A stretch of DNA of 62,948 bases, the filler included, from Sphacelaria rigidula (lineage: Eukaryota): the NCBI GenBank assembly GCA_964200075.2. It is 5 parts of 5 records of this genome, joined end to end, with 100 filler letters (N's around TTAATTAATTAA, not from the genome) between each part and the next. Parts side by side here need not be neighbours in the genome. Positions count along the whole stretch, not along the records: positions 1 to 12,512 come from CAXNAA020003680.1; 4 more parts are not named here. The stretch is one strand, 5' to 3'. Below the pieces are notes generated by a model. It did no database searches, had not been told where the DNA came from, and worked only from the letters and a program-made list of their open reading frames with translations. The position numbers and the translations under genes are program-made. Shown here piece by piece: positions 1 through 30,727 of this stretch. Each line of letters opens with the position of its first letter. The first letter of the stretch is position 1.

Positions 1-400
1 TTGTGCTGTGTGGCGCCCGCCCCAGACCGTTTTTGTTTTGTTTTTTTCTTTCACTCCCCACTTCAGCGGTCATTCTTTTTTTCCCCCCCCCCCCCCCCCC
101 CCCAAGTCAGCCCAAGACCCCACAAGAAAAATGACCATACAACGCATGATAGCTTGTTTCAGACTGCATGAGTCGCCTCATAGGGGCGACGTTGGCAAAA
201 CCGATCCCAAGCGTGATAGTTCTCAGCTGCTTGGTGTGCTCGGCATTTCTCGTTTCTATTCGCAAGTAGATTTGCCTCCTCAAATCAGTCCCTCTTCTTG
301 GGAGGGGCTGTCGCGACATCAATGTAGTGCAGCGTGCCGCAATGTTCTCGAAACTGCGTTCATCGCGACTGAACGGTTGGTCGAAGTCACGCCTACTTAA

Positions 401-1282
401 TGTTAGAATTCTGGCGTTTCAGTGTGATGTGTAGTTTGTCTCACAACACGTAAGCACCACATGTGTATGTCATCGACCGAGTCAAGTGCATACCATCGAT
501 AAATAGATGCACATCGGTTTAAATATTCGGAATTATGTTTGATACAGAGTGAAACGATTGTTCTGGGTAGGCCAACATGACACGATGGATGTACAGTCGT
601 TTCAACTACAGAGAGAACGCATGGTATATACAGGCCAAACTGCGTTGTAAACAAGTGTGCCGGATGCAGGCCATAAATTGGTGAGAACGGTCGCAGGGTT
701 GAACACAAAGTCCAGACGGTAAAATTAAAACCTGGACTGATGACGAATACTGCACACATATGTTACACGGTTGAACGTATAAGGCTTGTAGGTTTGACAG
801 AGATGTCATGTCAAGCTTGTATGAGTGAAGGGATTTGGATAAAAAACAGTTAGTTTAAAACGTCTTTTCGCAAACTTGTCATGTGTGATACACAGAAGGC
901 TAGTCAAAGATCGAATTCGACTGTTCCAGTGTTCAAAGCAAGGGCTATATAGATCATTTTTTTGTGCATCCTCGAATTGGATACATGTTTAGCTGTCTCT
1001 TACAGAGATTATCACAGTTAATTTTGGTTTAGACTCATACAAATCGTTGTGTTTTCATCTCTCCTGGCAAGAGCATCGAGATTATGTATATTAATAAAAC
1101 AAATATTCACTAGGATTTCTTGTGCCCAATCAGGGAAATGATTGACCTATGCGAGAAAGCTTGCGTTACACTCGACAGCAAGATGATGTCACTCTGCTTG
1201 TACGCCGGTCAATAGTTCATGCGACTACTATTTGACATACTGTTTCCGCAGTTCGCACACAGCTGACCAATAAATTCCAACA
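401..1282 (+). mobile_element. 5' LTR of Copia element 1
   Basis: Begins TGTTAGAATT and ends AATTCCAACA (imperfect terminal inverted repeat, TG...CA). Immediately followed by a PBS-like GGTTATGCGCC and then gag-like sequence. Confidence 0.65.
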
Positions 1283-1294
1283 GGTTATGCGCCT
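1283..1294 (+). promoter_or_regulatory. Primer-binding site, internal half-tRNA-iMet type (copia/Ty5-like)
   Basis: GGTTATGCGCCT directly abuts the LTR-terminal CA and resembles the GGTTATGGGCCC PBS of Drosophila copia-type elements. Confidence 0.6.
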
Positions 1295-1561
1295 CGACCT
1301 ACGCAGGAATATCATCAACGAAATAGGGGTAGCCAGAGCCAAGATATCAAGCTCTAGCAGCTTCGAAACTTGAAGGAGCAATGTCACCAGATCCGCCAGA
1401 CATGGAGCTAAAGTGGGCCAGGCGTCATCGTGGCAGCCGCTGCCAATGATATCGTACCAAAGTATTTCAAGATTTGATATGTTTCCGAGGAGTTTCCAAG
1501 ATCGGTCACGAATATTCAGGAATTTGTTCACAGGGGCATCGAGAAATAGCTTTTGCAACAT

Positions 1562-1788
1562 TGTAATGCGTGAGAGGACCGCGTGCTGAGAGGACCGCGT
1601 GCTGAGAGGACCGCGTCATAGTTCGAAACACCTCAGGATCGACGTTTTTCAAGTTTAGTCGAGTCAGTCCCTGAAGGGACCACGCCCCTGACTCTAACCC
1701 CAACACTAACCCTAACCCTAACCCTCACAACAGCGATGTTAAAATTCAGATGCGGTCCTCTAAGCACGCGGTCCTCTCACGCAGTACA
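1562..1788 (+). mobile_element. Telomere-repeat-carrying TIR element (MITE), copy 1
   Basis: TGTAATGCGTGAGAGGACCGCGTGC...GCACGCGGTCCTCTCACGCAGTACA with an internal CTAACC tract. Perfect 5-bp TSD AACAT (1557-1561 and 1789-1793). Inserted in the Copia gag region. Confidence 0.9.
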
Positions 1789-2212
1789 AACATTCTGAGC
1801 GGAAAATTCGCCCCCACACCAACCGCAACAGACGTTGCTGTGATTGAAAATTCGCAGAAGACAAACAAAAAGCTGTTCAGTTTTTGACCTGACGACGAGT
1901 GGCTCGGCACAAGTCTTCCTCCAGGCATACGAGGTCAAGGCTGGGCGTGCTGGAGACGGACGACAGCTGACAATCCACGGAAAAGCCGATGGGCAAGATA
2001 TCGGAACTTGAGCAAAAAATGTCAATGACTCTCTCCGAGAGCACATCTCCATCAAGTGAGCATGTGGCTGCAACATTTCCATCTAGCAAGCCTCCTACTC
2101 CACCACCGCGGGGGTCGACGACAATGACCACAGCCAAAAGTCTACCGGGATTGATAATCCAGGCTCAACCCCATCGCAAAAGTGGCACTGGTATCGCTCA
2201 GGAACTACACTA

Positions 2213-2469
2213 GAGTGATGCTGCGATAGGGTCAGCACTTTTACGGCCTGAGAGTAGAATTGTTAGGAACCCTTTATCTCATCCAAAACACGACTTTCGA
2301 AATAGATGAGAGTATGCCAGGGTTTTCTTCCAATTTGCTAGGGATATCCCGAATGAATTTGCAACCGGGGATATCCTGATCCATATTCTTGTGTAGTTCC
2401 TAATTTTAGGAACCCCTGAATCAGGCCGATTTTGGCCCCAAAAGTGCAGACCCTATCGCAGCATCACTC
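2213..2469. mobile_element. MITE with GAG...CTC termini (Sola2-like?)
   Basis: ~29-bp TIRs GAGTGATGCTGCGATAGGGTCAGCACTTT / AAAGTGCAGACCCTATCGCAGCATCACTC. Flanks ACTA/ACCA (4-bp TSD with one mismatch). Confidence 0.75.
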
Positions 2470-4318
2470 ACCACCCCAGAATCTGCATTCTGATGGAATG
2501 AGCTGGAACAAAGTAGTCATGTGGAGCACACGATCAGCTACTACGGTGAGAAGCGCTCACGAGGAAGGTAGCAATAATTGACGAGAAGATGAACAGCTGA
2601 GAGGAATGCGATCGTTACTAGCAGCCCCCCTCGCCCGAGTCGCAATCAAGATGGCACCAAAGGTGGTGGGGGTGTTTCCAGTGGTACTGTAGCGGACAAG
2701 AATTACGAGAATAGCTGTACGAAAAACTTGGATAAGAAGTACGACGGCATGGTGAAATCGCAGCGTGTTCGTCGATTGGTGTGCAACAAAGTAAGAAGGA
2801 TCCGGTGGGAGAGCGTGAAATCAGTAATGATGTTACTAAGGTTCGGATAGCCGAAGCTTCAGTGCAAAAGGGCGTTCCCTGTACTAGCTTCCGGTAGAGC
2901 TGACTCACGCGAGACTACGGTAGGCATCGACCACCCCCGCGATTGATTGCGGATGCTGACGCAGGCAAATAAAGTAGTGAAGACAAGGAACGTCACCTGG
3001 GAGGCGCCGCCGGTCATGGTGGTGCCGTCGGTACAACTGCAGCACCTGGCTTCGCCGAAGGTGGCAGGGGCATCAGAGCTGGGAGGGACGGCACTGTCGA
3101 GAGGGACATCGGAGCTGGGAGAGACTCCGGAGCCGGGAGGGCTAGATGATTTCGATTCTGCTCCACCGACTCCACTGCCCCCAATACTGGGGAGAGGAAC
3201 CCCCCTATCAGCGTCGAGTGATTTTTTCAGCGAAGAATGCAGACTATGGTGGTGAAGGTGAGCGAGGTTCTCTTGGTGATGAAATCAGCCCGCCCCCGAC
3301 AGCACAGCTTATTTTCTAGGCGTTTATTTGCTATCGGTGAGTAGTGAGCCGTCTGCCGACGGCAAACCCTCAGTGTCGTCTTCATGAGGAGAAAATATTT
3401 CACTTCCAACGGCAGCGCGGACTGCGGCGCGACAACTTGAGTGCAATTTGATTGGATTTGGAAATGATGAGGAGCTTGAGCGAACCAGACCGCAGACGCG
3501 AGCACTCAATCGAGAAGCATCTGGGCTCGTGACTATGTTAGAGCCCAATAAAGGGGGGCAAAATAGTCCATGGACAACTGGCGATACAAGAGGTTACCCA
3601 TATACTGGGCGAGCTCCCTAAATGTCTCGTCAAGGAAGCGGGGTCGGAGCTTTTGTCATACCCTACGGCGTGTTCATCACCACAGTCGGATGTGGATGGA
3701 GGCAACGAGGATAGAGTGCGATGGGCTTATGGCTGCCGGAACGTCCGTGGACGTGACTGACATTCCAGCGGGGTGCAACACTGTGGGCGCTGAGTGGTTG
3801 TACGAGTGGAAGGGCTGTTCACAAGGTGTGGTTGACCGGGCTGAAGCCCATATGGTAGCCATGGGGTACAGTCAGGTAGAGGGAGTAGACTAGTTTGAGT
3901 CATTTGTCCCTACGGCATCTGCTACTCCAAGCAGGTTAGTAGCGACTATGGCATGTAAGCTTGACTAGAATTTAAGACGCTTAGATGTAGGCCACGTCAA
4001 AGTTGGACACCGATATCTACGTGCGCCTGCCCCTGCGTTGTGGATCAGTTTCTGGTAAGGTAGTGCGCCTTAACCAGGCTTTGTACGGTTTGAAGAAGAG
4101 TCGTCGTGCACGGTATCAACTGGTATCGTCAACCCTGGGGGAGTGTATTTTCGAGCAATGCTTGGTAGATCCCTGTATATTTCGACTGAGGGTTGCTGAT
4201 GACGTTGTGGCGTTGATGGTCTTTCATGTGGACGATATCATCATAGTAGCTACTGAGGAAGTGACTAAGGCAAAAGTCGGTGAACTCTGTAATGAGTGAG
4301 AGGACCACGCTCAGAGTT

Positions 4319-4529
4319 TGTAATGAGTGAGAGGACCGCGTGCTTAGAGGACCGCATCGGGATTCGAACATCGCTATGGTTAGGGTTAGTGTTGGGGTTA
4401 GTGTTGGGGCTAGGGTCAGGGGCGTTCTCCCTGTAGGGTCTGGCTCGATTGGCTTTGTAAAACGTCGATCCTGTGGTGTTTCGCACTATGGTGCGGTCCT
4501 CTAAGCACGTGGTCCTATCACGCATTACA
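4319..4529 (-). mobile_element. Telomere-repeat-carrying TIR element, copy 2 (inverted), preceded by an orphan TIR fragment at 4288-4310
   Basis: Same TIRs as copy 1; internal GGTTAGGGTTAG tract on the + strand. Confidence 0.85.
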
Positions 4530-4534
4530 AACTC

Positions 4535-4738
4535 TGTAATGCGTGAGAGGATCGCGTGCTTAGGGAACCGTATCGTAGTTCAAAACACCTCAGGATCAAT
4601 GTTTTCTAAAACAAATCAGGCTGGTCCCTGCAGGGACCACGCCCCTAACCCTAATCCCAATCCAACCCTAGCCCTAACCATAGCGTGGTTTAAAATCTGA
4701 TGCGGTCCTCTAAGCACGCGGTCCTCTCACGCATTACA
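4535..4738 (+). mobile_element. Telomere-repeat-carrying TIR element, copy 3
   Basis: TGTAATGCGTGAGAGG...CCTCTCACGCATTACA with a CCCTAA tract. Separated from copy 2 by only AACTC. Confidence 0.85.
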
Positions 4739-5853
4739 CTAGCAACCGACGTGCTGCTCATGGTTGATTCGGCTGATGAAGCGATATCGCTTTGCTTATA
4801 ATACAGAGTGATATGCAGCATACACACGGTCCACCATCACACATAGGGCCTATACGTGCATCGTTTGGGCTTGAAGCGTCTAATATAGAGTCTTTGCGAT
4901 GGGCCAATGCAGTTTCAGAACAGGCAGGAGGAACTTCGGGGCTTCTTGTGAATGGCAATTGGTGCTACTCTCAAATATGATCACCATGAACTCCGACAAA
5001 TATTCGTAGCCGTTTGCTCATGTTGGCTTCGATTCTAGGAAGAGTTGGACACCATCACCTTCTTGCATTCAAGAGTACTTCCATAAGCTGACCGTGGACG
5101 CTTGTCGTTCATAGAGAGAGGATATGGTGCCTTTTTTACTTTGAATAATAAGGATCATGCGGGTGTTCCAGTCTTTTCGTTTTTTTCTGCCGCTTCAAGG
5201 GATGATCCCACCCTCGAGGTCAAACAGAGAATGCTACCTCATGGTGTGCGCATTGGGCACAAAGTGGAGGGCCTCGGCACGCGATCGAGAGACGAGCGCC
5301 TGACGCACGTCAGTGCAAAAACGCGATATAGAACCACAAGGAGCGATTTGGAAAAAAAAGCCCAGACTAGTTAGTCTGCACGTTTGCGTTTGAAATTCGG
5401 TTTTATTGAAATTTTCTGTCCGATTTGCGAGGCAGTTCAACGAAATCGTGAACCGTGAACCATAATTTGTTTTCATTTTGTATATGGTGGAGTGCGCAAT
5501 GGGACGATCGCTTTTGGTGAGCAACGTGCTACGCGGAATTTGAGATAGAAAACGTGCCGCCATGGTTTGTTACCATAGGATACTGTGACCAGGTGACTAG
5601 GCCACGAAGCAGTAGATCTGGAGTGAAACCTGGCACTGGTAAGACTAACGCGTCAGCATTTTGACGAATAAACTGATATGAACTGGTTTGACGTACGTGT
5701 CTTTAGTGACGCCGAATTGATTTTTGTTCCAGAAGTGATCACAGCTCGGGTTCGACAATCTCGATGCTTTTCTGGTCTCACTCTCCCGACTCTCCTTCAG
5801 CCCCTCGCTGTGGGAATCTTAAAGAGACTGTGGTTACTATCATTTTCGCCCAA

Positions 5854-6243
5854 GAGTCATGCTACGATAGGGGGGGGGTATTTTGTGCCGTTTTCTTGCA
5901 CGAAATTCTACTTCAAATCGTCGTTAATAGCAGCAACGGTTGTTCAAACGCGCTTGCTTCCGACAAATAATGCGCATTCATACTGCTTGACACGGGGTTT
6001 ACCCAAACACAAGCGCACGGCGAGTGTGTCAGGTCGTCTGAAGCATTTATAAGCCCATTTTTTCGTGGAATCAAATACCCCCCCCCCCCCCCCCCCCCCC
6101 CACCCACGCCCACCCCCCNNNNNNNGGGTTTTCCAAAAAAAACGCCGCCGGGGGGGGGGCAACGTGTCCCGAAGAATTTAAAAACCCTTTTTTTTTAGTA
6201 AAAAAACCCCCCCCCCCCCCCCCCCCCTATCGTAGCATGACTC
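5854..6243. mobile_element. MITE with GAG...CTC termini and poly-G/poly-C subterminal runs
   Basis: TIRs GAGTCATGCTACGATAGGGGGGGG / CCCCCCCTATCGTAGCATGACTC. Perfect 4-bp TSD CCAA (5850-5853, 6244-6247). Contains a short N gap. Confidence 0.8.
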
Positions 6244-6429
6244 CCAAGCGCGCGTAAACACCACGTCTTTACATTCGTTTTTCGCTGCGAGACGTACGCC
6301 AACTTCGCAGTCACTTTGCATCCTCTGCAAGCAAGTCCAGTGAGACAGCACCGCACAATCCTCGATAGCCTTACAACGGCTTCACTATGGCAGAATTTGG
6401 GGGGCGGCTCGTCTGGCTGCGACTGGAAG

Positions 6430-6577
6430 CCGCCCAGCCGGTGGCGATCTATCTAAAGGGGATGCCGGTGGTATAGCGTGGCGTTCACGTAGCAGCAGGA
6501 CTTGGACTTGGAGACTGCTTCGTAGCTTTTGCAGCAGTCGACGCAGTAGCGGGTGGCGCTTAACCGACATATTTGGC
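6430..6577 (-). pseudogene. Possible B-box-like zinc-finger pseudo-exon
   Basis: After a CAG acceptor the minus strand reads (C)QICRLSATRYCVDCCKSYEAVSKSKSCCYVNATLYHRHPL*IDRH. Cys/His spacing is B-box-like, with an in-frame stop. Confidence 0.3.
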
Positions 6578-7112
6578 CTGGTAGCGACCGGCTGTTTACC
6601 TTGGGCAGATCATCGTTGAAACGGCCCGATTTTCACTCGAAACATGACTGCACGATCAGATGACCCACCCTGGCGGTCAAAAGGTTAACTCGTTGATCGT
6701 TGGGATGGGCCGTTCATGAATTTGGCACCAATCTCACTTCATAATGTCAGGAAGGAACAGACGACCCGCCCTGGCAGTCAGAGCCACTCTGGTTATCAGG
6801 GCTGAAGTAGGTGAAGTGCCATGAGTATGTGCCGTATGTCAGATCGAATTGCTCTTGAAACGGGTTGCAACCTGCAAGCTCCGATAGTTGATGGGCCGAG
6901 ACTTGGGTCAAACACCGGGAGGAACATGGTATAGGTAGGAATGCACATCGAAGACGACGCGCATCGTAACGTTGTAATGCGTGGGAGGACCGCGTCCTTG
7001 GAGGATCGCATTGTGGTTCAAATATCTCCAGGATCGAAGTTTTTCAAAACCAATCGGGCCAGTCACAGGGACTACGCCCCTCACCCTAACGCCAACACTA
7101 ACCCTTCTTGCA

Positions 7113-8006
7113 ACACGGGGTTTTACACATTAGAGATGGGTTTTTTATTGAGAGGATGAGGAACCGGAGAGTTGATATCTTCGTATCCACACCAAATAAT
7201 CTTCGGAATATAGTTTTATCTCGTCACTCGCTGGTTGCTATCGACAACTACTATACGACATACAAATGTGGATACTGATAAACGACATGTTGGGGTCCTA
7301 GATAAAGAGAAAATTTTGGGGAATTTAGATGATCCGATCAGATCGCCGGCATTCCCCGAAATTGGTTTTTCACCTAGGGACAGTCGGTTATCGAAATTGA
7401 GGATGCAGCTTTTCATCGAGGATGAGAACCCGGAGGATTGAGATCTTCGTATCTACACCAAATATTCGAAATGTGGTTCCATTTCTTCACACGCTGGTAG
7501 CTATTAACAACTGCTACACGCACTACAAGTTTGGATTTCGATAACCGAAGTGTTAGGGCCCTAGGTGAAAATCAATTTTGGGGAATTCCGGCGATCCAGT
7601 CGGATCACCTGAATTCCCCAAAATTGTTTCTTCATCTAGAACCCCAATATTTCGGTTATCGAAATCCAAACTCGTAGTGCGTGTAGCAGTTGTCGATAGC
7701 TACCAGCAGGTAAACGAATGGAACCATACTTCAAAGATATGGTGTGGATACGAAGACTTTGATCCTCCGGGTTCTCATCCTCAATGAAAAGCTCCATCCT
7801 CAATTCCGATGATCGGCTGTTTAGGACCCCGACATTTCGGTTATCGAAACCCAAATTTGTATGTCGTGAAATAGTTGTCAATACCTACCAGCGCGTGAAG
7901 AAATAGAACCATGTTTCGGAGATTCGGTGTGGATACGAAGATTTTGATCCTCCGGGTTTCTCATCCTCAAAAAACAAATTCATCCCCAATTTCTAAGATT
8001 CCGTGT
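7113..8006. mobile_element. Foldback (palindromic) element, doubled-arm form
   Basis: ACACGG...CCGTGT termini. Two direct copies of a module (ATCTTCGTATCYACACCAAA) are followed by two inverted copies (GGTGTGGATACGAAGA). Homologous to 44824-45266. Confidence 0.8.
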
Positions 8007-8026
8007 CCAGTCCTAACCCTAGCTGT

Positions 8027-8452
8027 AACAGCCTGGATCTATTTTTGAGGTTCAACATTTGGGTGAGGTTCAACTCGAAAATGGTGATTTCCCTGACCTA
8101 AAGTCATGACCAATGAATTTTATGTGGACAACCTCATGCCGCCCGACCTCCTTGAAACTATTTTTAGGGGTTGCCCGTCTTCCGTGCCCCCAAAGCGAAT
8201 ATATGCGAAAACACTAATTTCGGGCTAAAAATGTCATCTTCTTCGCCTCGAGATCGACGCAAAAAGGTGCTTTCGCACATACGCTTTTGCGGCACTGAAG
8301 ATGGGCAACCCTCAAAAATGTTTTTAAGGAGGTCGGTGGGCATGAGGTCGTCAATATGAGCCTCGTTGATCATGACTTTAGGCCAGGGAAAACACTGTTT
8401 TCGAGTTGAACATCGCCCAAATGTTGAACATCAAAAAATGATCCAGGCTGTT
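8027..8452. mobile_element. Palindromic MITE with ~180-bp arms
   Basis: AACAGCCTGGATC...TTGAGGTTCAACATTTGGG matches the reverse complement of CCCAAATGTTGAACATCAA...GATCCAGGCTGTT. Confidence 0.8.
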
Positions 8453-8635
8453 CTATGGTGGTGTCCAGACTCCGATGCGGTCCCCTAAGCACGCGGTCCT
8501 CTCACGCGTTACACTGGGTTCAAGTTGATTTTGCATGCGTGTTTGTGGGCTGTTCAAGTAATAGTCTCCACGTAGGGTGGGCTGGTGCGTTGCATAACAG
8601 ACGTCGGCACTTACCAAGTCTCTTCGTTGCTGTCG

Positions 8636-8875
8636 TCAGGACGGCGACCGAGAAAGAACGAACCGCTGCTCCAGTATCTCGGGCTCCCCACTTGTCCTCG
8701 CGATCATCAAAGCCGGGAAAATAATGATGCACCAGTCGCTTGGAGCATCACCGTCTATCGGCTCCGAGTGGATGTCTTCGTTGTATCGCTGTGTTGTACC
8801 GAGATCATCGGTGAACGTCACGGGAGGGTCCTGCAGACAGCAGTTCACCATGACTTTGATGTACGCCTTGATGAC
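8636..8875 (-). CDS. Terminal exon of a coiled-coil protein with a MIEAP/GIL1-IRKI-like C-terminal domain (tentative)
   Basis: After CCAG| it reads VIKAYIKVMVNCCLQDPPVTFTDDLGTTQRYNEDIHSEPIDGDAPSDWCIIIFPALM...RFVLSRSPS*. The phase does not match the upstream exon directly, so a small intervening exon or another acceptor is needed. Confidence 0.55.
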   Translation of the reverse strand, partial: VIKAYIKVMVNCCLQDPPVTFTDDLGTTQRYNEDIHSEPIDGDAPSDWCIIIFPALMIARTSGEPEILEQRFVLSRSPS

Positions 8876-8959
8876 CTGGCCAGATCGTTCCGTGATCACG
8901 AGAGACGGGCAAGAAATCGGTGAGAACATCGTATCACTCCTTTCAGTATAAGGCAAGGC

Positions 8960-9176
8960 TGTAATGCGTGAGAGGACCGCGCGCTTAGGGGACCGCATCA
9001 TAGTTCGAAACACCTCAGGATCGACGTTCTTCGAAACCAATCGAGCCAGTCCCCGCAGGGACCCTAACCCTGACCCTAACCCTAACCCTAATCCTAACCC
9101 TAGCCCTAACCCTAACCATGGGGGTGTTCAAACTCCGATGCGGTCCTCTAAGCACGCGGTCCTCCCACGCATTACA
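8960..9176 (+). mobile_element. Telomere-repeat-carrying TIR element, copy 5
   Basis: Full TIRs and the cleanest tract (about 9 CCCTAA-type hexamers, 9062-9117). Flanks AAGGC/AGGGT may be a decayed TSD. Confidence 0.9.
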
Positions 9177-9679
9177 AGGGTTTCTCGCCAAAAGACCCCA
9201 ACCCGTTCACGTGTGATATTTTGAGTTTTTCAAACACACCAAGTGTGATGAGTTCCTATGCCGTTGTTGAAGTAGTACATGCATACCACCTGCTACGATA
9301 ATCATACCCCCTTTTGCAACCCTCTTTGTGGAGAAGCGATGGTATGAAGTTTCACAGGAGGCATACATGAGAATCGGGGAATGAACGCATACCCCCATGC
9401 TCAATATGTCATTTTGCGTGCGGTTCAGAAATTCATCCTTCTCACCTTACCGAGCCCGCTCGCACTAAACGAGAGCGCAAGCAGTGAGGACCGAAGCATC
9501 GTAAAGGAGCAGAACCGTCGGCGAGAAAGCAACGCAAAGAGGCAAAGGAGGGGGGGGTGAGGGATGGGAGTGGGCCGGGGGTACCAAGTTCATTTTCAGC
9601 GTTGCATGTGGAGAGGATCCACTGTAAGTGGCATAACTCTTCATGACCCCGACACAGTTGGTCCATACATGGTCGTGTA

Positions 9680-9881
9680 TTGATGCGTGAGAGGACTACG
9701 TGCTTAGAAAACCGCATTGGAATTTGCATCCCTATGGTAAGGATTAGGGTTAGTGTTGAGGTTAGGGCCAGGGGTGTTGTCCCTGCAGGGTTTGGCCCGA
9801 TTAGTTTCGACAAACGTCGATCCTGAGGTGTTTCGAACGACGATGCGGTCCTCTAAGCATGCGGTCGTCTCACGCATCACA
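9680..9881 (-). mobile_element. Telomere-repeat-carrying TIR element, copy 6 (inverted)
   Basis: T(G)TGATGCGTGAGAGG...TCTCACGCATCACA with a TTAGGG tract. Perfect 5-bp TSD GTGTA (9675-9679, 9882-9886). Confidence 0.85.
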
Positions 9882-9948
9882 GTGTACCAACCTGCATGCC
9901 ACCCGCAAGCTCGGAATCTGGAAATAAAATCACAGCATCACAGCTCAC

Positions 9949-10904
9949 CTTAGAGCTTTGACAACGAGCTCAGGGTCACGCTGGCTCGGATCCCACTCGT
10001 TGGATGCCATCATGCTTTGCGCAAGACCCAACGTGATTTGTCTCACAACGTTCCTCCGCTCCGCTCCAGCGAGCGGGAACAATGTATGGTGGTGACGGCG
10101 CATATGTTGCTGCATGAAGTCCTCTGTGGCAGGATCTAGAGACTCTTCCTCAGGGGGGAACTCTTTGTGTTTACTACCGTTACTCCTGCGCTTGCCCCTG
10201 AAAAATGCAAGCACCTCCTCACGTCGTTCTTGCACAACCTCTGCGCAAAGAAAAAACGTCTTTTGCAGCATCCAAGGAATGATCTCGGTCTCCCTGATCC
10301 CATCACAACACTCATCCTGCATGCCACCCACCCACTTGCTGACCGTTCCAGTCAGCGTAGTCCGTGTGCTGCGAACAAGCTCCTGCAGAGTAAGACCCTC
10401 TTCATTAGTGCATGTTTGGCGGGCGAAGCGTGCCCTCCTCGCCGCTTCTTGTCGTCGGAGCTCTGCTTGGCATCGTTCAGTTTGCCGTTCCGCGTGCATC
10501 CTAATTTCCCGCTCGCTGGCAAGCAAAACGCTAGTTTTTGTCAACGTCTCAGACAACTTCTGGTTCTCGAGGGTCAATGTTCCCGCTTTCGCCCTCGCAT
10601 TATCTCGTTCCTCGAGCAAGATGGCGCTCGAGATACGCAGGGCGTTGATTTCGTTCGTGACATCCGCAAGATACCGCTTTGTTCGCCGCAGTTGTCGCTC
10701 GAGATTCCTCTTCATGCCCTTCAACTCCAGCAGCTCCAGAACGACTTGACGTTTTTCCACGTCGCCGTACTCATCTCGGCGCTCACATGAGGACGATCTT
10801 GTGCGGTTGCTGTTAGAGCAGCGTGTCCATGGGGTGCTCCATGCCGTTGCGGCCGTACCATGTGATGTCGCTGACTCGCTTCGTTTCAAATGTCTGGCGG
10901 GCAT
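9949..10904 (-). CDS. Large exon of a coiled-coil protein (same gene as 8636-8875)
   Basis: Uninterrupted ~318-aa ORF with heptad-rich E/R/L stretches, ending at an AG|GTGAG donor. The true 5' boundary is uncertain (ATG at 10904 or an acceptor near 10935). Confidence 0.75.
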
Positions 10905-12512
10905 GCCTTCAACGGTTCGCCGTGGGATGCGGAATCTAGGGGGTATGATGTTACTGTGTCGGGTGCACCGGCTCCGAACAAAATATTATCGACGAGTGGC
11001 AGCACTGAAAGGCAATAGGTGTGCACACACCGGCACAATGGGTGCTACACGATGATTTGTCGCTACAGGGCAATGACACCAGGACCCCAGCTAGGTGGTG
11101 TGGAATATTTGTCAAGTAGTATTATTAGTGAAACCGGACATGCGGTGCCATGAGGTGCTGTTGTACGATATGTCACTTTGCCGAGGACCCCACCTGTTCG
11201 AGAACGAAACTTTGGTCCGCTGCCACAAGACCATTATATCGCTGGGCAACTAGTCCCGTACCAAAACACCAAACTAAGTTGTCAACCCGCGATGTCAATT
11301 GGAGTCGTTCTGTTGCTTGCACGCACAGGCTCCAGTGCGTTTGCGCGTGTAAACTGCATCAGCCTTTGGATGTTTTGGGGGCCCTTATTGGAAAAACATG
11401 ACATGGGTCCAAAAATTGAAAATTGCTGGCTGGAGCTGTGTAACGTGTCTTTGTGGGCTCACGACTTTTCTTCAGACCGAGATCCACAGAATGAACGGCT
11501 GGTAGTGCTGGGTGCTGCGGAGATGACCCCGAAGGATCGGTTCACAGGGTTGTTACCAGTCATCGTACTGGTCGTCAACAACAATGTGGCTACTTGTTTA
11601 CGGTCGCTCATCTATATGCGCACACTGTGCAGACATATACCTATTATTCAGTCCTCTAGTCAGAACATGCGCATCGCATATTCTCAGCGTAGTAGTGCTC
11701 TGCACTTATGCATACCACATAGAAGGAGTTTAATATGCGCGTGCGCGCATACATAATGGGCCGGCAACACGATTCATGGTGCTCCATCTTATGCCTTTTA
11801 CAAAAACCACTATTTTATCTGCGGGCTGATCACGTTGCGAGCATTCGGAAGTCACACACTTCCTTCCCGTACTACCCATCATGGAGATTCGAGGTGATGA
11901 TGCTACCCGTGTTTGTTACTGATCGGAGCCACACGATTTGCCTCCTTTTCGTTCGTTTCTCATTCCTGACTGATCACGTCTTTCCGACAGAATTTCTTGC
12001 GATTTGAAGTTTTGAGGCTGAATTTATTTTGTCGATTTCTTGTCAGCGGGCCCGTGCTGTACTTTCAGTCCTCAAAATGACTAACGACCATGGTCTGTAT
12101 CGATACAGCCTCGAGAGCTAAACCGTGCATCGTTAGGCTATACAAGCGGTGATTTCGTCCAGTTTCCTCCCACCGACGCCTTTCCCTCCGGGGATGTCCC
12201 CATGTCCCCCATATTTTTACTATCAGTAGAAGTACAGCATCCGAAACTCGAAGTACTCGATATATTTAACCGTGAATTACTGTCAAGTATACCTGGGAAG
12301 TCGAGCATGAGATACCTCTACTGATTGAGACCGAGAGAGCATAACAACAAAGCGTCGGGGAACGCCATCATCATCGTCAGCAATGGTCGTTCCTGTACAG
12401 CATGGTAAGGCACAACAGCAGTTAGTTGTAGTAGTTCTGGATACGAGCTGGGCCGGGCAAGAAGCCTACTATCAGTAAGTCGAGTCTAGCTCTGCCGCAC
12501 TAGCGAGTTTGG

Positions 12513-12612
12513 NNNNNNNNNNNNNNNNNNNNNNNNNNNNNNNNNNNNNNNNNNNNTTAATTAATTAANNNNNNNNNNNNNNNNNNNNNNNNNNNNNNNN
12601 NNNNNNNNNNNN
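12513..12612. other. Artificial contig linker
   Basis: 100 bp of N with a central TTAATTAATTAA (stops in all six frames). Confidence 0.97.
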
Positions 12613-12857
12613 TGTGGGGTGTTCCTTGTTTTACTTGAGGTTTTAGTATTGAGAGTGATACGTTTTGTTTTTTTTTGTGGGTGGGGGGGGGGGGGGGGGG
12701 GGGGGGGGGGTATTAAAATGTTTCAACGGTCTTGAAACTGAATTTTCGTCAAGTTTGTCGGTGGGAATCGTGTAAACTGAAGATTTTCTCCGTGCTTGAT
12801 CGTCTTTTTTCTTTGTGCATGTGCGTCCGCGCGCGCGCGTGTCTGTGTGTGTGTCAG

Positions 12858-12996
12858 GATGGCCTTGTCCACTGCGCTCAACACCGTAGCGCACGGGCAC
12901 GTGCACGAGCTGATGGGCGGCACTTGGTCTGGGGAATTCAGAGACTTTTCCAAGAGAGTTACGACTAACGTCCTACCATTCTTGCACACTATTCAG
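12858..12996 (+). CDS. Internal exon of a tyrosinase-like (type-3 di-copper) protein
   Basis: CAG|...|GTGAG boundaries. Encodes MALSTALNTVAHGHVHELMGGTWSGEF..., with the CuB-type HxxVHxxxGG motif. Confidence 0.6.
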
Positions 12997-14829
12997 GTGA
13001 GCGACGAGAAACCTAGCATCGACAAAAGAAGGAAAAAAAATGACTCCCGTATCTACGCTTTTCGGGGTTACTCAAAAACGCCTCTCTGAAGGGCATATGC
13101 CCATTTGACGACCAGGCAACGGACTTGGCTCTTGATGGAGAGTCTTCGCGGATTGTGGTTTCTCGGAAAGACTTTGCTGTATTCGTTGGCCGAGAGGATT
13201 CTACCGCAATTTGCCGATCTTTCGTACGTGGCATATGACTTTTGGCCAGACTGGTGAAGAACTCCTCTTGCACCCTGACACCTTTTGCCATGTGTTTCAT
13301 GTGGGTTTTTGTACACCTTGGGGAAAGACAACGGGGATTTTTCTTGTGTTGCATGATAATTTCTAGTACCGCCAACAGCCGAACTAGGCGCACGAAAGAT
13401 CGCCGAAGTGTTCTGGAATCCTTCCGCAGTGAACAGCGAGTCTTTCCGAGGTGGCTGAATCCGTTGAGCCCCCATTTTTCTGGAGGCCAAAATTGGCGCC
13501 GAATCGCTTAAATAGGCATTCTTCTTGAGAGACTCTCTGTTGATGCCCACAAACTGTGGACGTTATATCAATAGAGAGTTTCGGAAACACAAATCAGAAC
13601 TCAGGGATAAGGAGAAACTCAGGGATTATTGAGAAAGTTGGGATTTAAGGCCAGGATATGACGAATTCCCCTAGCTAAACCCCGAAAACTGAACCCTGAG
13701 AAGAGACATGCCCAGCAACTTCGGTTTAATTTTGAATTAAAAAAAAAAAAAACTGAGGTGCTAGACACGCCAAAGCGTTGGTGCCCAACTCAGGGCTATG
13801 AAACGGAACTAGACACCCTGCCCCATAACGACCAAGGTTACAGAACACAGCCGAAGGACAAGTATCATAAGTGAGGCGGTGGCGGATGTCGTGAACGCCC
13901 GCGACAGCACTGGTGATGGCAGCTCGTTCACAAGGGTGACCCAAAACTACGAGGAACACTTGGAGGCGAACGGGGGAGCCGAGACACCAGTCGAAGTGGC
14001 TCATGATGATGCGAAAGGGCGGGAGTCGGCCGCTCAAGCAGCTTCTATGAGGACTTGACGAAATGGCAACCCAACGTGAAGCTTGCGTTAGCTCGCGCAG
14101 TTACACCACCGTTGGGTGGCCATTTTGTCGAGATCCCGTAGCGGCTGCATGGGTGGCCCACTTCAGCCCTTCCACGTCATCTTTATCCAGGTCGACAGGT
14201 GTCTATCTCTCTGTTCCCCCTCTCGCCTTCACGCAGCTAGGATTACTGCGTGTGGTGAACCTTTATCGAGAACTACTGTAATTCCTCAAAGTATGCAAAC
14301 GGACACACATAGGCATGTGCACACTTGTACTACAGACAACAGTACTACAGTACTACAGAACACTTCCTACCGAAAGTGTACAAAACTGTGTACAGACAGT
14401 GCAACAGTACAGTAGTAGTGCAACCCTCAACTGTCTCAACTCAAAAGTGCTCTACCAGACACAGACATGTGCAGCACTTGTGAATGACTAGCGGGCGCCG
14501 AGGTGCACTGCCTGTGTGCCCAACGCTGTCTACTGTGCCGGGTTGGTATCCGGAGGCTGTGTTTACGATACTGTGTGTGAGTTGTCGTCCCATCTATTCT
14601 GGACGCCGGTCTACACCTTTCACCTTTCAGTATATGTGGGCACACCAGTCGGGATCACACAGGAAGGTCAACACAGGAGGTTTTTTCCTCACGTGTTTGT
14701 TTCTAGTACTCAATTTTTCTTCTGCGGTGCTGGCCATTATTTTTTTGTCGCGAGAGGGGTTCAGCAGCCCCTTTGCCTCGTCGACATGTGATGGTAAATG
14801 ACTGAGTGCCTGAATTAAAACTAGGTCCT

Positions 14830-15366
14830 TGTGGATATGCAGATGGTCCCCAGAAACGACCAGCGGGTATGGAAAGGTTCTAGTCGAATGTGTGTTTGTA
14901 TGAGACAGGATTCGATCCTTGTGTTGTTGACGCAGCGGGTTATGGATTGTACCCGATTAGCCGCGTGTACCTGCTGCTACTACAGCCTTGATTACCTAAA
15001 GGTACGGCGCGTCACGGTGATTTTGTATTATGACGAGATTGTAAGCGGGGCAGACGGATGTATGGACAGCTGCTCTACCCCCCGGTCCCGCTCGAAAACC
15101 TCGACTACAGTCTTCAGGCCTCCTTGGATATAAAGAAGAGCTTTACTCATCAGCTACCCGCCGATCTCCTGTCTTCAGTGTCGCGAGTCCACAGCTTTGA
15201 CGTGAGTCTTAGCAGTGCTGTAATTCTACCCTCATTCACCATTGTTACTTGTTTGCTGGCTTTGGGGCTGTTCCCACTTTGACAGCTGGGCTATTGTATT
15301 GAGAGAGTGAAAAACAACAGTTTGGGTTAGCAAGTCGGAAACAGGACCGCCTGCCTACACCCCACA
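14830..15366 (+). mobile_element. Putative 5' LTR of the Gypsy element
   Basis: Starts TGTGG, has a TATA-like TATAAAG near 15128, and ends CCACA (at 15193 or 15366). No second LTR is available to confirm it. Confidence 0.3.
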
Positions 15367-16739
15367 AGGGTGTGGCTTGCTTGCGTTCGGTGTATACGGC
15401 ACTACTGCTTGCGGTAGTTGCTTATACTTCCACATTCATGGGGCTTCAGAGGTAGCTTGTTTCATTCAAGCTGTACGGTTTTTCTCTTTCGATCGGCCGC
15501 TGCTTACACACAGCCAAACACCAGCTCACGGTTTTCTCTCGAAAACCTTGTATTTTCGGCCCTCGTTTTCACTTGATATTTGTGTACATGATTTAGCGGT
15601 GTAATACGCCGCGGTAATTTCTCAGCTTCTTAGACAGCTGTTCTCTCTTTTACTCGGAGTTTGACAGACATCCCGACTCGAGTTAGCTGCAGGTGTTCGA
15701 TGTGTCATACAGTACCTACGTTGGTTTCAGGCAGTGGCAACCGAACCATGAAGCGCTCAAGGTACGAGCGCACACGTCAGCCCTCTCTTGCTGCACAAGC
15801 GCTCTCACTGGTAACGTTATACACCGCACAGAGGACGCACAGCGTTTTCATGCACACTCGATCTGAAGTACCGTGTCCTTTTGCACCCACGGGCGGTTCT
15901 CGGATAATAAAGCCGCTCACACGTTCCTTGTTTAGATACGCCCCTCAAGGGTCCGTAGCTTTTTCACCGCCCTCCCGACCATCTGCCCCCGCAAGCGCCC
16001 CTGCCCACAGCCCGTCGATTCTGTATCAATCGAATCGACCGACATGTGTCCAAACACACGCCAGTTCATGCTTGCGGTAGAGAGTTCGTGGGCTATTTCA
16101 ATCGCCGCCCGCTGTACATCCGACTTCTCTTGCCCAAACACGGAACGTTGAGCCACCATGCGCACCGAATTGTATCGATGCGGCATGATCGACCAGAATA
16201 AGAATGTTGTCTGTACACGAGCATGATTGAACACGGCGATGCGCGAGGCTCATGTTACTTGTACACAAGCGCTCGACTCTGTACTTTTGAAACTTTTGCA
16301 CGGCACCAGTGTACACTACAGTTTGACTGCTGCCCCACCAACACGCACTACAGTACATACTTGGTCGTCCAGAAGGCCACTCACCTTTCCCGTTGAAACA
16401 TTGTTCTGAATTGAAGTGCTGACGACAGTACAGCACCGTTTCAATTACAAGTGGTCCAAGCGGGGAATATCTTGCGGACGGTGAGGTGCCGTACTGTAGC
16501 ATGCGTTGGTACTGCTACACTATCTGAACGTAGTCATGTATATTGCATTGTAGATAAGAACACGGCGCGGGCATAACGTTGTGTCGGATTTGTTTCATGT
16601 ACTGCGAACAAATTGATATCGTACTGCACTGTTGACCACGCCCGCTGGACCACGTGAAGATCATGTGTACTGTACTGTGCTACACAGCATTTCGTTGTCT
16701 GGTGCTTTTTACGCTGCTGTGTGCACTGCACTACACATT

Positions 16740-16989
16740 TGACACTTTCTACGATAGCCCCCCCCCAAAACCAGCCAAAAGTGTCACAAAAAAAATGAGC
16801 ATACAGCGCCTGATGCTTGGGTTCAGGCTGCATGAAGCGCCTGATATTGGCAGTACTGGCTAGAACGAACCCCGTCTTGAGAATTCCCAGCTGCTCGTTG
16901 TGCTCGGCTTTTCTTGTTTCGATTCACATGAAGATTTTGCCTCCCAAAACCATGCACTTTTTGGGGGGGGGCTATCGTAGAAAGTGTCA
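16740..16989. mobile_element. MITE with poly-C/poly-G TIRs (related copies at ~83-310 and ~55329-55560)
   Basis: TIRs TGACACTTTCTACGATAGCCCCCCCCCAAAA / TTTTGGGGGGGGGCTATCGTAGAAAGTGTCA. The core TTCAGRCTGCATGA...CAGCTGCT is shared with the two other loci. Confidence 0.8.
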
Positions 16990-17003
16990 CTTGTATTTCG
17001 GTT

Positions 17004-20000
17004 GTGCTTGTCCATTTATCAACTGTCTACCTATACGATGTACGTCACCAAGACTCCACCAACCCACACACATACGGGTTGTTGTGTGCCTTCGACATAG
17101 TTTTTTTTCCTTTTCGTCTGCGTCTGATTGAAAAGGTGGTAGACCTCATGCATGTGCGGAGTGCGCAAACCTACATGTCGATCGACTGTCGACAGTACCC
17201 TGCCACTCTATTCCTTTATTTTTGTTCACGCCGCCCCAGTCCTCAACAACGATGCTCATTTCCACTTCGAAACGTTCACTTTTCACCCTCTGCGTCTCTA
17301 CGTTACCGGTTTGGCGCCATGGCGCACGTGTACAGGCCATGTCTGATATCAACCGTCCTTCGACTTCATCGTAGCACGATGTCACGAAGGACGGTGCGCT
17401 CCCTACAGACAATGGTAAAAATAACCGTACAGCCAACCCAAATCATGCGTAGTGAGACGGTTGGCAAAAACAAACAGGAACGTTTTGATGTTGATAATAG
17501 CGTCGTTGCAGGACGTCTTTTCAGGGACGTGAGTGTGGATGAAGACAATCCTCCTCCACATGCTGACCTTGAACCCGTTGGTGCCCACTCCCCTGTACAC
17601 CAACCAGCCACTCAAACCGCTGACGGTGTTCCCACTCTTCATTCTCAGATGGCATCTCTCCAACTAAGCCCTGATGCTACGAAAACCTTTCCTACCCATG
17701 TCCCCCGCACCCAAACCGGTGCTGAACCCTGTAATAGCCCCACTCTGGCTGTTGATGACCAGCCCAAGCCAGAACAATCCCCGCCCACGTGTGATGAAGC
17801 ATATTTCCAGCTCAAGCAAACTTCTCCAGCCCTCATTCCCCCGCGTTGGTACAACTTTTCGCTAAATGAACGAAAAAAATGCTGGGACCAGATTGATGAC
17901 AGCAATCTAGCACAGCTTGAACATGCCTTGAGAGAATTGGAATTTGCCCACCTCCAGGCGGGTCAACATGCGGGTTTTTCAGGGGTACAAGAGCCCGCGC
18001 AGGTCCCTCGTGAGATGGATGTCCACCCCGAGAACAAGCCTACAGAACAAAATGAACTAGAACGCGCGATACGCAAATCCACACAAGGCTCTGGAAATTG
18101 CGAAGCAAGAACATAAGCTGTTGAAAAAAAGACACTTGGAAGCTTCGCGTCATTTTGGACTATGTTGGCAAGTCTGGTAATCACAACTGCGTCGTACGGT
18201 CGTCTGCCCCGCCCCCAAGGCGACACTGATTCACCGCCTGACCCCCCTGACCTGGCACACTTTCAACCACATGCACCGGCCCACTCAAAAAACGGTAGAC
18301 GTTTACACATGGGTGGACCTAGTGCCGCGGCTGAACCCCGCCAGAGCGGTACCCACACAGCAATGATGCTCACCTCACAACTTGACAACCTTTTGGGAAC
18401 GTTCTACAAGTTGCGGAGATTCCAAATAGCATACAGTGGGGTAACTCTGGACGCGTTGCTTGACCCAAAAGCTAAGCCCCGTCACCAGCCCAGTTTATTT
18501 TTCTAATTCTGTAAGTCATTTCTCATTTAGTTGGTACAATCCCACGATTAAAAATATACAATGACCGGCAATTCACTGCAGAAGTACCCAACACTTATAT
18601 GTCAACAATTTGTTTTCGCTCGGCCAGGTCACGCACATCGCACGCACGAATCAACGGTGGCCACCGCGGCTTCAACCATGTGGTGTGAGTTCCCTGGATA
18701 TGCTGACACTGCCTTGAAGGGTTCCAAGACAGCCGAAGCCCGTGCACCGTTGCATGGCTATCAATTGAGCAGTGACCAACCCCAACGTTTTAACCCTGGA
18801 TTTGATCACCCACTTTTACATTCATCAGGTACTAATTATATTCAATCGAATCCCCTCCGTTGAAAGGAGAGGAAGTCGTGTAGTGCAGTTTCTCACGCAT
18901 CAGGAGCCGAAATATCTTCTGGTACGATAGAGACTGCTGCTCCGACCGTTCATCGGAGGACACAAAATTTGAAGCCTCACACTCGAGCACCCCCCGACTG
19001 CTCAAGTGCCCGGCTAACCACCCTACCGAGTTCCGCAAAAACTACGGTACCCGGTTCCCTTTTATTTGATGAGCGTAATTATTCTTTGAAGGGTCGCAAC
19101 CGCAAAGAATCCATGCTTTCTGTCGCTCAGCGGGTTGGAATGGAACCCCCAAGTGACAGCGACTCAGGTGGTGCGCCAAGAGCGTGACCTAGGTTCGACT
19201 GTCCAAGAACTCATTTCAATAGCTTCTAGAGCCGCCGATCCTCTCGTGCGCTACACGCGTCACCAGACACGGGCTCCTCCAGATGATCATGTAGATAACC
19301 CTGATGTAGCAAGCGCACGTGAACTCCAAGGAGGAGATTGCGTGTGGGCTCAGACGGATGAAAACCTTAGAGTGGAACAGGCCGGTACTCCCCAGATTTC
19401 GAACAGATCGTTACTGCTCCCTGACCACCCCGCGTGCACTGCGTTAGAACCTATTTCCGATGTAGCGTTGCCGTCTGTAGGGCAGAGACTTCGCCGACTC
19501 ATGGACGTTCGCATCCTAGTCATGAAGTCACCTCAATCGTGTGTTCGTCACCAGGCAAACAAAGTGTTACGCAAGACGACTCGTCTCCTAACTCGCCCAC
19601 GTTGGCCCCTTTAATTGACGCCAGGTTGACCAGTACAGCTTTACCAACCCCGCGTCTTGACGAATCGTCGCCGAAACCTCCCATGTTGGCCCTAACTAGT
19701 GATGGCATTGAGTTAATTGGCGTATCAAACTCAACACCGCGCGCCGATGAATCGTCCCCTGTTCCGACCAAGCTGGATAATGTAATTGACCCCGCTTTGC
19801 ACATTGACGATTCGCCCCCTCTGTTGGCCAATAAGGGTAAAACACTACGCACAGACCAGCTGTCGAGTCCAACCACGACAACTGCTCTTCCCCAGCATCG
19901 CCCCTCCGTTGCAGTATATGAGATCCAACCCTCGACCTATGAGACAAATATTCCAGGCACAAACACTGACACTCCATGCACGCACCATCCTTCCGACCAA

Positions 20001-25123: not shown

Positions 25124-25223
25124 NNNNNNNNNNNNNNNNNNNNNNNNNNNNNNNNNNNNNNNNNNNNTTAATTAATTAANNNNNNNNNNNNNNNNNNNNN
25201 NNNNNNNNNNNNNNNNNNNNNNN
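25124..25223. other. Artificial contig linker
   Basis: N run with TTAATTAATTAA. Confidence 0.97.
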
Positions 25224-25576
25224 ACTCATTATACTAAAACCAAGTAATTTTCAGACGAATCATTATTTGTCCGACCCTTGGAAAGTTATATTAGCATGGA
25301 GAACGACAGAGGTATGCTGAATAAAAAAAATGGACCCTCATTTTGGGGGGGGAGAGAGGTTCGAGCGTTCTCGTTAAAAAATGGTCGTCACCATACTAGA
25401 ATGCCCTGAACCAGCGAAAAAAAAAAATCAAAACCAACCTGATCCATTTTTCTTGGTTCATCATGACCAAGTGAGGTCCCGCACAAAGTTTCAATACACA
25501 AACACCAAACGTGGGCCGATAAACGGTCTTCAAAATATTGTTCCGAATTTCCGCCGGCCCGGTTTTTAGAAAGCAG

Positions 25577-25837
25577 ATTCGCAATTCTTTACTTAGAGTT
25601 GAACAGTGAAATTTGGTATGGAAAATCAACAGGGCATGAAGAAAAGCTGGCTGTGGGGTCCAATTTTTTCTTTTCTTTTTTCATGAGTTGAGGGCGATAA
25701 TCAGTTTTCAGCTATCACTAAAATGCCCTTAACTCATGAAAAAAATACTTCGGGACCCCACAGACAGCTTTTATTCATGCCCTGTTGATTGTCTATACCA
25801 AATTTCACTTTCCAACTCTAAGTAAAAAAATGCGAAT
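25577..25837. repeat. Imperfect ~260-bp palindrome (MITE-like)
   Basis: TACTTAGAGTTG...GTGAAATTTGGTAT...CAACAGGGCATGAA is mirrored by TTCATGCCCTGTTG...ATACCAAATTTCAC...CAACTCTAAGTA. Confidence 0.75.
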
Positions 25838-27299: not shown

Positions 27300-27401
27300 G
27301 CGCGTCTTCTGCTGAAGAGCGTGACTTCTACTAACCCCAAGCACGGGCCAGGGTGGATTGCCGCTGCACGAGTGGAGGAGTACGCGGGGAAAATTGTCCA
27401 G
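27300..27401 (+). CDS. PRPF6: Pre-mRNA-processing factor 6, first visible internal exon
   Basis: [34 protein letters not shown], the hallmark Prp6 sequence; AG/GT boundaries. Confidence 0.95.
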
Positions 27402-27628
27402 GTAAAAAGTGACATGAGGAACATTGATGCGCATGTCACGTGGTGTGATGTGGTTCGCGGTTACCTTGCCCTCAACTTTGTCTTGGTCATTTTCCAACTG
27501 TTAAAGTCATGTGCGTTTTGCTCTATTTTCCAAGTGATTTGGGTCTTTGTCATTTTGCAAGTCAACTAATATCGATTCAACAGATGGATGGGTCGAGCGT
27601 ATGTGTGTATTTGTGAGTGTGTGTTTAC

Positions 27629-27659
<31 letters not shown>

Positions 27660-27937
27660 ACTGGCAATGATTTTTACTGGTTGCGAATGGAACGAATTAC
27701 TAGGGTGCGTTTTTTCCTGAGTTCCGGTGAAATGCTCCCAGGGTGATCGCCGACCCATGCACGTCGTGTTTTCTTCTCATGTACTACCATGAAGATCCCC
27801 CCAGATGAAGAATATGATCAACGACGAAGAAGTTCATAAAGTTAATTAATGGCACCACTCGCTTTTTATTGTGTTTGTTTTTTTTCACGTTTGTGCTGCC
27901 TTTTATGTGGTCGGAAAAAAATGTATATAACGGGCAG

Positions 27938-30469: not shown

Positions 30470-30727
30470 GTGAGTGAGCCAGGTGGTTATTTTTGATTTT
30501 TCTGTTCCTGCTTCTCTTTTTTTTCTTTTGCCGGCGGTGAAGGATGCTAGTACTAGTACGTACTAGTAGTACTACTAGTAGTAGTGGGTCCGTTGGATAA
30601 TGGGGCGTTATAGTGCCGGTTGTTCCTATCGCGTGGAGATTTTTGCAAAGTCGTGCGTGTAAGTACTTGAGCCTTTTCCTACATCACGTGGATTATGCGA
30701 CAATGTGCACCCCTCCCCCTTCTCCTC

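Follow-up and report, generated by a model that had tools for sequence, protein, structure and literature searches.

In a 62,948-nt stretch of the genome of the brown alga Sphacelaria rigidula (assembly GCA_964200075.2), here called the window, we analysed six copies of a short element that carries a tract of the telomere-like repeat (CCCTAA)n between terminal inverted repeats (TIRs). The analysis bore out the proposal of a first-pass annotation of this DNA that the copies represent a mobile, non-autonomous TIR family dispersing a telomere-like tract: the flanks of the copies are unrelated, three of them have perfect target site duplications (TSDs), and homologous open reading frames (ORFs) place the element in 65 contexts outside the window. 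[quoted passage not shown] The window is not one continuous genome stretch. It is composed of five contigs of ~12.5 kb (1-12512, 12613-25123, 25224-37732, 37833-50340 and 50441-62948) that are joined artificially, by decreasing length, through N44-TTAATTAATTAA-N44 linkers (12513-12612, 25124-25223, 37733-37832 and 50341-50440), and all six copies of the element are located in the first contig.

Interstitial telomere-like sequences are usually ascribed to old chromosome fusions or to the action of telomerase at breaks. A small transposon with a tract in every copy is a third, simpler source of such sequences, and the tracts borne by elements would need to be set aside before the remaining tracts of brown-algal genomes are interpreted as scars of fusion. 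The family further counts among the very few leads to an integrase-like DNA transposon (5-bp TSD, TGT...ACA termini) in stramenopiles; the only curated brown-algal library, as described in PMC12477816, holds a single orphan of this type.

Structure of the six copies and of the telomere-like tract

The presence of six copies within 8.3 kb, in both orientations, was confirmed within 1 bp by direct reading, by interval alignment and by a profile. The coordinates proposed in the first-pass annotation held for all copies except for the start of copy 6, which was found at 9681 and had been placed at 9680. Copy 1 (1562-1788, plus strand) is 227 bp long, with three 16-nt units in its left TIR, not two, and a tract at about 1686-1725. 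Copy 2 (4319-4529, minus strand) measures 211 bp, and its tract at about 4379-4420 is TTAGGG-like on the plus strand. It adjoins a partial duplicate of its own terminus (4288-4318, minus strand), which consists of 31 nt, of which ~24 nt correspond to the start of the TIR and 7 nt are additional, and which gives a weak profile match at 4288-4315; with this duplicate copy 2 spans 4288-4529. Copy 3 (4535-4738, plus strand) is 204 bp long. Copy 5 (8960-9176, plus strand, 217 bp) has the longest tract, at 9061-9117 (9.5 units, 88% matches), and is intronic; copy 6 (9681-9881, minus strand, 201 bp), one terminus of which is 1 nt short, lies in the same intron.

Copy 4 (6973-8513, plus strand) is split, having been hit by two later insertions, both within its tract. 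Its left part (6973-7107, plus strand; profile positions 1-136) contains the TIR, the spacer and the start of the tract, and is followed by a nested foldback element (7108-8008). A remnant of the tract, which was read and aligned at 8009-8026 on the plus strand, separates this element from a second nested element of 426 bp with 174-nt inverted arms (8027-8452). The right part (8453-8513, plus strand) comprises the subterminal region and the right TIR. Both nested elements are outside the family.

A profile built from five copies and run over the window recovered its five source copies and both halves of copy 4 (6973-7105 and 8453-8513). It detected no further copy in the other 53 kb, and its sole other match was a (CCTAAC)n tract in the region 37884-37980, which has about 14 units (86 nt) and no TIR of the family nearby.

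The copies are 201-227 bp long. When the two ends of each are aligned as inverted repeats, the alignment covers 37-55 nt, of which 31-48 positions match, in all six. The copies begin with TGTAATGCG and end with CGCATTACA, the outermost letters being TGTAA and TTACA, apart from the one end of copy 6 that is without one base; the intact ends of the element read TGTAA or TGTGA. In every TIR the AGAGGACCGC motif is found twice, at a spacing of 16 nt. With at most one mismatch allowed, this motif occurs 24 times in the window against 3.1 expected from shuffles, and 21 of the 24 occurrences are inside the copies. The repeated motif had already been described as triplicated in the left TIR of copy 1, and there a 16-nt unit was indeed found 2.9 times at 100% identity. 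The order inside the element is TIR, a spacer of ~60 nt with a short GC-rich palindrome around GTCCCTGCAGGGAC, the tract, about 20 nt and the second TIR. The alignment showed the conserved spacer and the (CCCTAA)n tract at the same place in all six copies, in agreement with the fixed position proposed earlier.

One strand of copy 5, when folded as RNA, forms a long hairpin (-105 kcal/mol, z = -10.7), which is expected of any MITE whose TIRs are of this kind. Rfam and tRNA scans of the entire window each returned 0 matches, and the hairpin corresponds to no known RNA family. Stop codons are present in most frames of most copies, and Pfam detected no family in the overlapping ORFs. One reading frame is open across copies 5 and 2, and it crosses the tract as proline-asparagine repeats.

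The 12-mer of the telomere repeat, CCCTAACCCTAA, occurs 21 times with at most one mismatch, compared with 0.22 expected; 15 of these sites are in the copies and six in the tract at 37887-37970. Within the element, the tract changes neither side nor orientation from copy to copy. It is degenerate, with 2, 1, 3, 2, 6 and 2 perfect CCCTAA units in copies 1 to 6, and Tandem Repeats Finder resolved it as 6.7 units in copy 1 and 9.5 in copy 5. The degenerate units CCCTGA, CCCCAA and CACTAA are common to four copies, and the degenerate pattern PDPNPNTNPNPN recurs across subfamilies of the element. The tract was therefore inherited from an ancestor and not re-made at each site, and its length, judging from the aligned copies, varies by gain and loss of units. 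It looks like a passenger microsatellite that was captured once and spread with the element. MITEs and other small transposons can carry or seed microsatellites, the length of which varies between copies; what distinguishes the present family from these is that its repeat unit is the telomere hexamer of the host lineage. TTAGGG, which the first-pass annotation named as the canonical telomere hexamer, is also the telomere repeat of Ectocarpus (bioRxiv 10.1101/2024.05.11.593484), so that the objection raised with that annotation, a host motif unrelated to TTAGGG, does not apply to this lineage.

Target sites, flanks and relatives of the element

For the reading of TSDs, the boundaries of the copies were set at TGT and ACA. 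The two duplications reported previously proved exact: AACAT at copy 1 (1557-1561 and 1789-1793) and GTGTA at copy 6 (9676-9680 and 9882-9886), the latter requiring a 1-nt deletion in the left terminus of copy 6. A third perfect duplication, AACTC, was newly found at copy 2 (4283-4287 and 4530-4534) if the 31-nt terminus duplicate is counted in. Perfect 5-bp TSDs, all different, are thus present in three of the six copies, with a chance of 1/1024 per match. The flanks of copy 5 (AAGGC and AGGGT) match at three of five positions, and those of copy 3 (AACTC and CTAGC) and copy 4 (AACGT and CTGGG), neither of which has a TSD, at one of five. The flanks of copies 3 and 4 point to loss of the TSD by rearrangement and not by point decay. 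For copy 3, this fits the broken Copia reverse transcriptase (RT) at the pair formed by copies 2 and 3: a degenerate RT fragment (3991-4296; RVT_2, E = 4.8e-10) ends at copy 2, its continuation was looked for beyond copy 3 and is absent, and a rearrangement at this pair is therefore indicated. The orphan flanks of copies 3, 4 and 5 were also compared with each other by eye for recombinant pairs, and no match was found.

No similarity was seen between the 150-nt flanks of different copies, except that copies 2 and 3 flank each other. Pairwise identity of the copies is 80-88% in a star-like pattern with no close pair, which argues against a recent local duplication. The unrelated flanks, the differing TSDs, the divergence and the nested insertions together indicate that the family is old and that its copies arrived independently. 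The element is short and non-coding, it has TIRs, its TSD is of fixed length, and its many copies are dispersed with unrelated flanks; these are the four characters by which MITEs are defined.

To find relatives among public proteins, the element was translated, and 1.84 billion representative proteins were searched with a profile of the translation. The search yielded 66 proteins at E<=1e-3, including 24 at <=1e-10. P0068 was rejected as a repeat protein without relationship to the element, which leaves 65 true homologues. A word-index search with the translations of copies 5 and 2 matched the 118-aa partial protein product P0010 of Sphacelaria rigidula, which is 65% identical over 99% of the element; the other homologous proteins stem from ENA and Logan contigs. 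Similarity among the proteins starts at the codons of TGTAATG and stops at those of ATTACA, and the flanking residues vary from protein to protein. At the position of the tract, at least 37 of the 66 listed proteins have PN/PD or LT/PT dipeptide runs, which correspond to the two open reading frames of CCCTAA repeats. Moreover, several TIR subfamilies are visible among the proteins, with ACLEDR-, AYQVDR- and ACFLDR-like sequences.

Public gene predictions include ORFs that read through copies of the element, so some annotated algal 'proteins' are MITE translations; Sphacelaria rigidula has at least one such read-through among its annotated 'proteins'. When 185,579 bacterial and archaeal genomes were scanned, neither a 25-mer nor a 21-mer of the TIR had an exact match (0 and 0), an expected result that shows only that the sequence of the element is not bacterial.

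Probable mobiliser of the family and possible role of the tract

According to the explanation that we favour, the element would be moved in trans by a transposase encoded elsewhere, for which the two 16-nt-spaced AGAGGACCGC repeats of each TIR are the putative binding sites, and insertion would duplicate 5 bp of the target. The termini TGTNR...YNACA together with a 5-bp TSD form a signature of the retroviral-integrase-like DDE type, and because of this combination a Ginger2/TDD-like mobiliser appears the most likely one. A degenerate (CCCTAA)5-10 tract would have been present in the ancestor of the family, its length changing by slippage, and each insertion would plant an interstitial telomere-like sequence as a by-product.

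TGTNR termini are described for Ginger1, Ginger2 and the long terminal repeats (LTRs) of Gypsy (PMC2836005), and TSDs of 5 bp for TDD-4 and TDD-5, those of other (metazoan) Ginger2 elements being 4 bp (PMC2836005, PMC10045372). The element resembles Ginger2/TDD in its TGTNR termini (here TGTAA), in TIRs of tens of nucleotides and in the 5-bp TSD, as in TDD-4/5 (PMC2836005, PMC10045372). The first-pass annotation had regarded TGT...ACA termini with TSDs of 4-5 bp as typical of integrase-like transposons, naming Ginger2/TDD and IS481-like elements; for Ginger2/TDD this rule stands (PMC2836005), whereas the IS481-like assignment fits worse (PMC10045372). IS481EU, which makes TSDs of about 4, 15 or 25 bp, does not agree with the 5 bp found here, and neither does IS3EU/GingerRoot, which has a 6-bp TSD and TA..TA termini against 5 bp and TGT..ACA (both described in PMC10045372).

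The superfamilies curated in Ectocarpus are Dada, Harbinger, KDZ, Mariner-Tc1, MuDR, PiggyBac, Sola-1, Sola-2, hAT, EnSpm and Helitron (Table 1 of PMC12477816), and for Harbinger, KDZ and MuDR that paper gives TSDs of 3, 8 and 9 bp, respectively. One orphan non-autonomous family of Ectocarpus, DNA5-N1_Ec32, is labelled 'possible Ginger?' in supplementary file 1 of the same paper (PMC12477816). By description, on which the comparison is based, DNA5-N1_Ec32 shares with the present element its brown-algal host, the non-autonomous state, termini of the TGT...ACA type (TGTTG..CAACA) and a 5-bp TSD. It differs in its length of 502 bp, in a 9-bp imperfect TIR and in that its description notes no telomere-like tract. 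To our knowledge, none of the superfamilies curated in Ectocarpus makes 5-bp TSDs.

Among DNA transposons with telomere repeats of their host, the nearest precedent is the family of telomere-bearing elements (TBE) in ciliates. Like the present element, TBE of Oxytricha (Tc1/mariner) is a DNA transposon that carries the telomere repeat of its host; it bears this repeat at the tips of both TIRs, is autonomous with several genes and makes ANT target duplications (PMC4724952). The present element, in contrast, is non-coding and 0.2 kb long, with a tract that is internal, one-sided, degenerate and of variable length, and it does not qualify as a TBE. Telomere-associated Penelope-like and other retroelements are likewise mobile and bear short telomere repeats, but they are retroelements, have the repeats at their 3' end and occur only at the ends of chromosomes (PMC4522978), whereas the present element has TIRs and lies in gene-bearing sequence. 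In the literature we found no description of a MITE or DNA transposon with internal telomere repeats, nor of this family among brown-algal MITEs; it may sit unnamed in an automatic repeat library.

Several observations weigh against the explanation given above. Three of the six copies are without a perfect TSD, and neither an autonomous element nor an excision footprint or an empty site came to light. The six copies are confined to one 12.5-kb contig, with none in the other four contigs of the window. A protein-level TSD check by eye, on seven outside matches with both ends in frame (gene predictions of about 50-60% protein identity), showed agreement of the first flanking codon in one of seven and of both in none of seven, which is about chance. 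Ginger2 TIRs are reported to be 50-180 nt long, and those of the element, at 37-55 nt, reach at most the low end of this range. The TSDs AACAT, AACTC and GTGTA (n = 3) miss the RTATAY target described for metazoan Ginger2 (PMC2836005), and Table 1 of PMC12477816 includes no Ginger family among those of Ectocarpus.

The last two points also favour a MITE whose mobiliser is not of the Ginger2/TDD type, that is, an undescribed 5-bp DDE superfamily (the orphan 'DNA5' class) or a Copia or Gypsy integrase acting on ends that mimic LTRs. In the same direction, the sole family with a 5-bp TSD in the Ectocarpus table is the orphan with the question mark, and the supplement of the paper gives 5-bp TSDs and TGT left ends for Copia-8 and Copia-9 and a 4-bp TSD with a TGT left end for Gypsy-8 (PMC12477816). 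Copia and Gypsy integrase genes are, moreover, present within the window: rve matches at 23525-24136 and 46924-47637 adjoin RT genes of Gypsy and Copia, in contigs other than that of the element. A retrotransposon integrase, however, acts on reverse-transcribed linear DNA, and the element has no primer-binding site, polypurine tract or direct repeats. Also against this alternative, the substrates of cut-and-paste transposases typically have long TIRs in which internal repeats are paired. As for the missed RTATAY target, target preference varies inside superfamilies and there are just three TSDs to judge by. We therefore regard another mobiliser as unlikely, while giving it more weight than the alternatives that follow.

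A second alternative concerns the tract, which could be a working part of the element: it would recruit Myb/TRF-type proteins or telomerase, would tether or protect the element or seed chromosome healing, and would be kept for this reason. Its presence in all six copies of the window at a fixed place and in a fixed orientation, and its recurrence in the listed outside proteins (at least 37 of 66) across several TIR subfamilies, are consistent with such a role. In Ectocarpus, TTAGGG motifs also occur within subtelomeric satellite monomers, which the authors liken to the telomere-healing seeds proposed for Chlamydomonas (bioRxiv 10.1101/2024.05.11.593484). Both later insertions into copy 4 fell within the tract, but two insertions into about a fifth of the element are weak evidence. 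Conservation among the window copies argues against a role, being 0.77 for the tract, exactly as for the spacer (0.77), and 0.85 and 0.91 for the TIRs; the recruitment of telomere/Myb-type proteins suggested by the first-pass annotation thus found no support. Its other suggestion, a role of G-quadruplexes (G4), fared no better, since the canonical four-run G4 motif is present in just two of the six copies. The units are degenerate, with one to six perfect hexamers per copy, and inheritance from a master copy yields retention without function. A working tract is accordingly quite improbable in our opinion; if it proved functional, the interest of the family would rise sharply.

A further observation concerns insertion next to the ends of resident copies. 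The spacer-side ends of copies 2 and 3 face each other, and the gap between them is exactly the 5-bp TSD of copy 2 (AACTC). Likewise, protein P0035 reads '...PRIT-DG-LVRERTAC...', which is the end of one copy, two residues and the start of the next copy, and by codon arithmetic this corresponds to a 5-nt gap. The two cases suggest that the 5 bp beside the end of a resident element are a favoured insertion target. We know of inverted-repeat targeting only for bacterial IS3- and IS30-type elements. The two ideas could be joined, with the telomere module kept in cis because it is useful to the element and the transposase targeting the 5 bp beside resident ends; the module could, for example, bind telomere-repeat proteins or telomerase at excised or inserting DNA. 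To this combination we give little credence. If it were true, a eukaryotic integrase-like transposon would be linked to the end targeting of IS3 and IS30, and the element would rank among the main sources of interstitial telomere-like sites, and of sites that might seed telomere healing, in brown-algal genomes.

A reading of the copies as solo LTRs, or as pieces of a known family of LTR retrotransposons, is very improbable. TG...CA ends and 5-bp duplications are also an LTR signature (PMC2836005, PMC10045372), and copies 2 and 3 abut the Copia RT fragment. The inverted ends of 37-55 nt are, however, far beyond the few inverted bases of an LTR, and the units are never direct repeats around an internal retroelement (gag-pol) region in the window, the sole adjacent pair being inverted. 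The profile detected nothing close to the genes for RT and integrase in contigs B and D, and the Copia fragment is broken in the middle of the RT and not at an LTR boundary. The possibility, raised with the first-pass annotation, that the copies would turn out to be solo LTRs was consequently not realised. Finally, a segmental duplication at this locus, or ordinary interstitial telomeric sequence stemming from a fusion or from the repair of a break, without any mobile family, would account for the confinement of the six copies to 8.3 kb of one contig, but it is scarcely credible given flanks without similarity, both orientations, differing TSDs, star-like divergence of 80-88% and 65 other contexts with differing flanks in public data, including Sphacelaria rigidula.

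Neighbouring genes and other repeats in the window

A gene of at least two exons was located on the minus strand at 8645-10904 by tblastn of homologues (exons 10904-9951 and 8884-8645). The homologue P0005 aligns at 10772-9951 and then again at 8884-8645, and copies 5 and 6 are intronic because these alignment blocks bracket both of them. The long hairpin and the repeat tract of the two intronic copies could affect splicing, small-RNA production or gene models. The protein encoded by this gene is coiled-coil-like and has no Pfam family; it shows a weak Atlas likeness (0.85) to the bacterial DUF6262.

No transposase domain was found with Pfam in the ORFs of the window (16 + 112 ORFs). The Pfam matches obtained were RVT_1, RVT_2, rve and Integrase_H2C2 of LTR elements, along with weak TPR/HAT, calpain and carrier hits.

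The foldback family, a ~900-bp copy of which is nested in copy 4, is built of units about 185-266 bp long, some of them direct and some inverted. Its relatives at 44823-45267 are 75-81% identical and are inserted into a 25-bp tandem repeat (45269-45364). The fourth contig opens (from 37833 on) with 39 nt that are 87% identical to positions 7786-7824 of this family, and the CCTAAC tract adjoins this fragment directly. As both insertions into copy 4 also hit the tract, these cases are suggestive, on a thin basis, of fragility of or targeting to telomere-like tracts. The arms of the 426-bp element at 8027-8452 are 83% complementary, and no other copy of this element was found in the window; its flanks, CTGT and CTAT, may be a decayed 4-bp TSD.

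Another element, of 390 bp (5854-6243), has inverted ends of ~24 nt running into poly-G/poly-C and contains an N7 gap at 6119-6125. It is flanked on both sides by CCAA (5850-5853 and 6244-6247), which may be a 4-bp TSD. Two tandem arrays were also observed, a complex one of about 500 bp at 39194-39695 with periods of 42, 86 and 128 nt, and one at 50499-52292 with periods of 73, 82 and 43. Long C or G homopolymers are located near several contig ends (83-103, 12683-12710 and 62853-62888).

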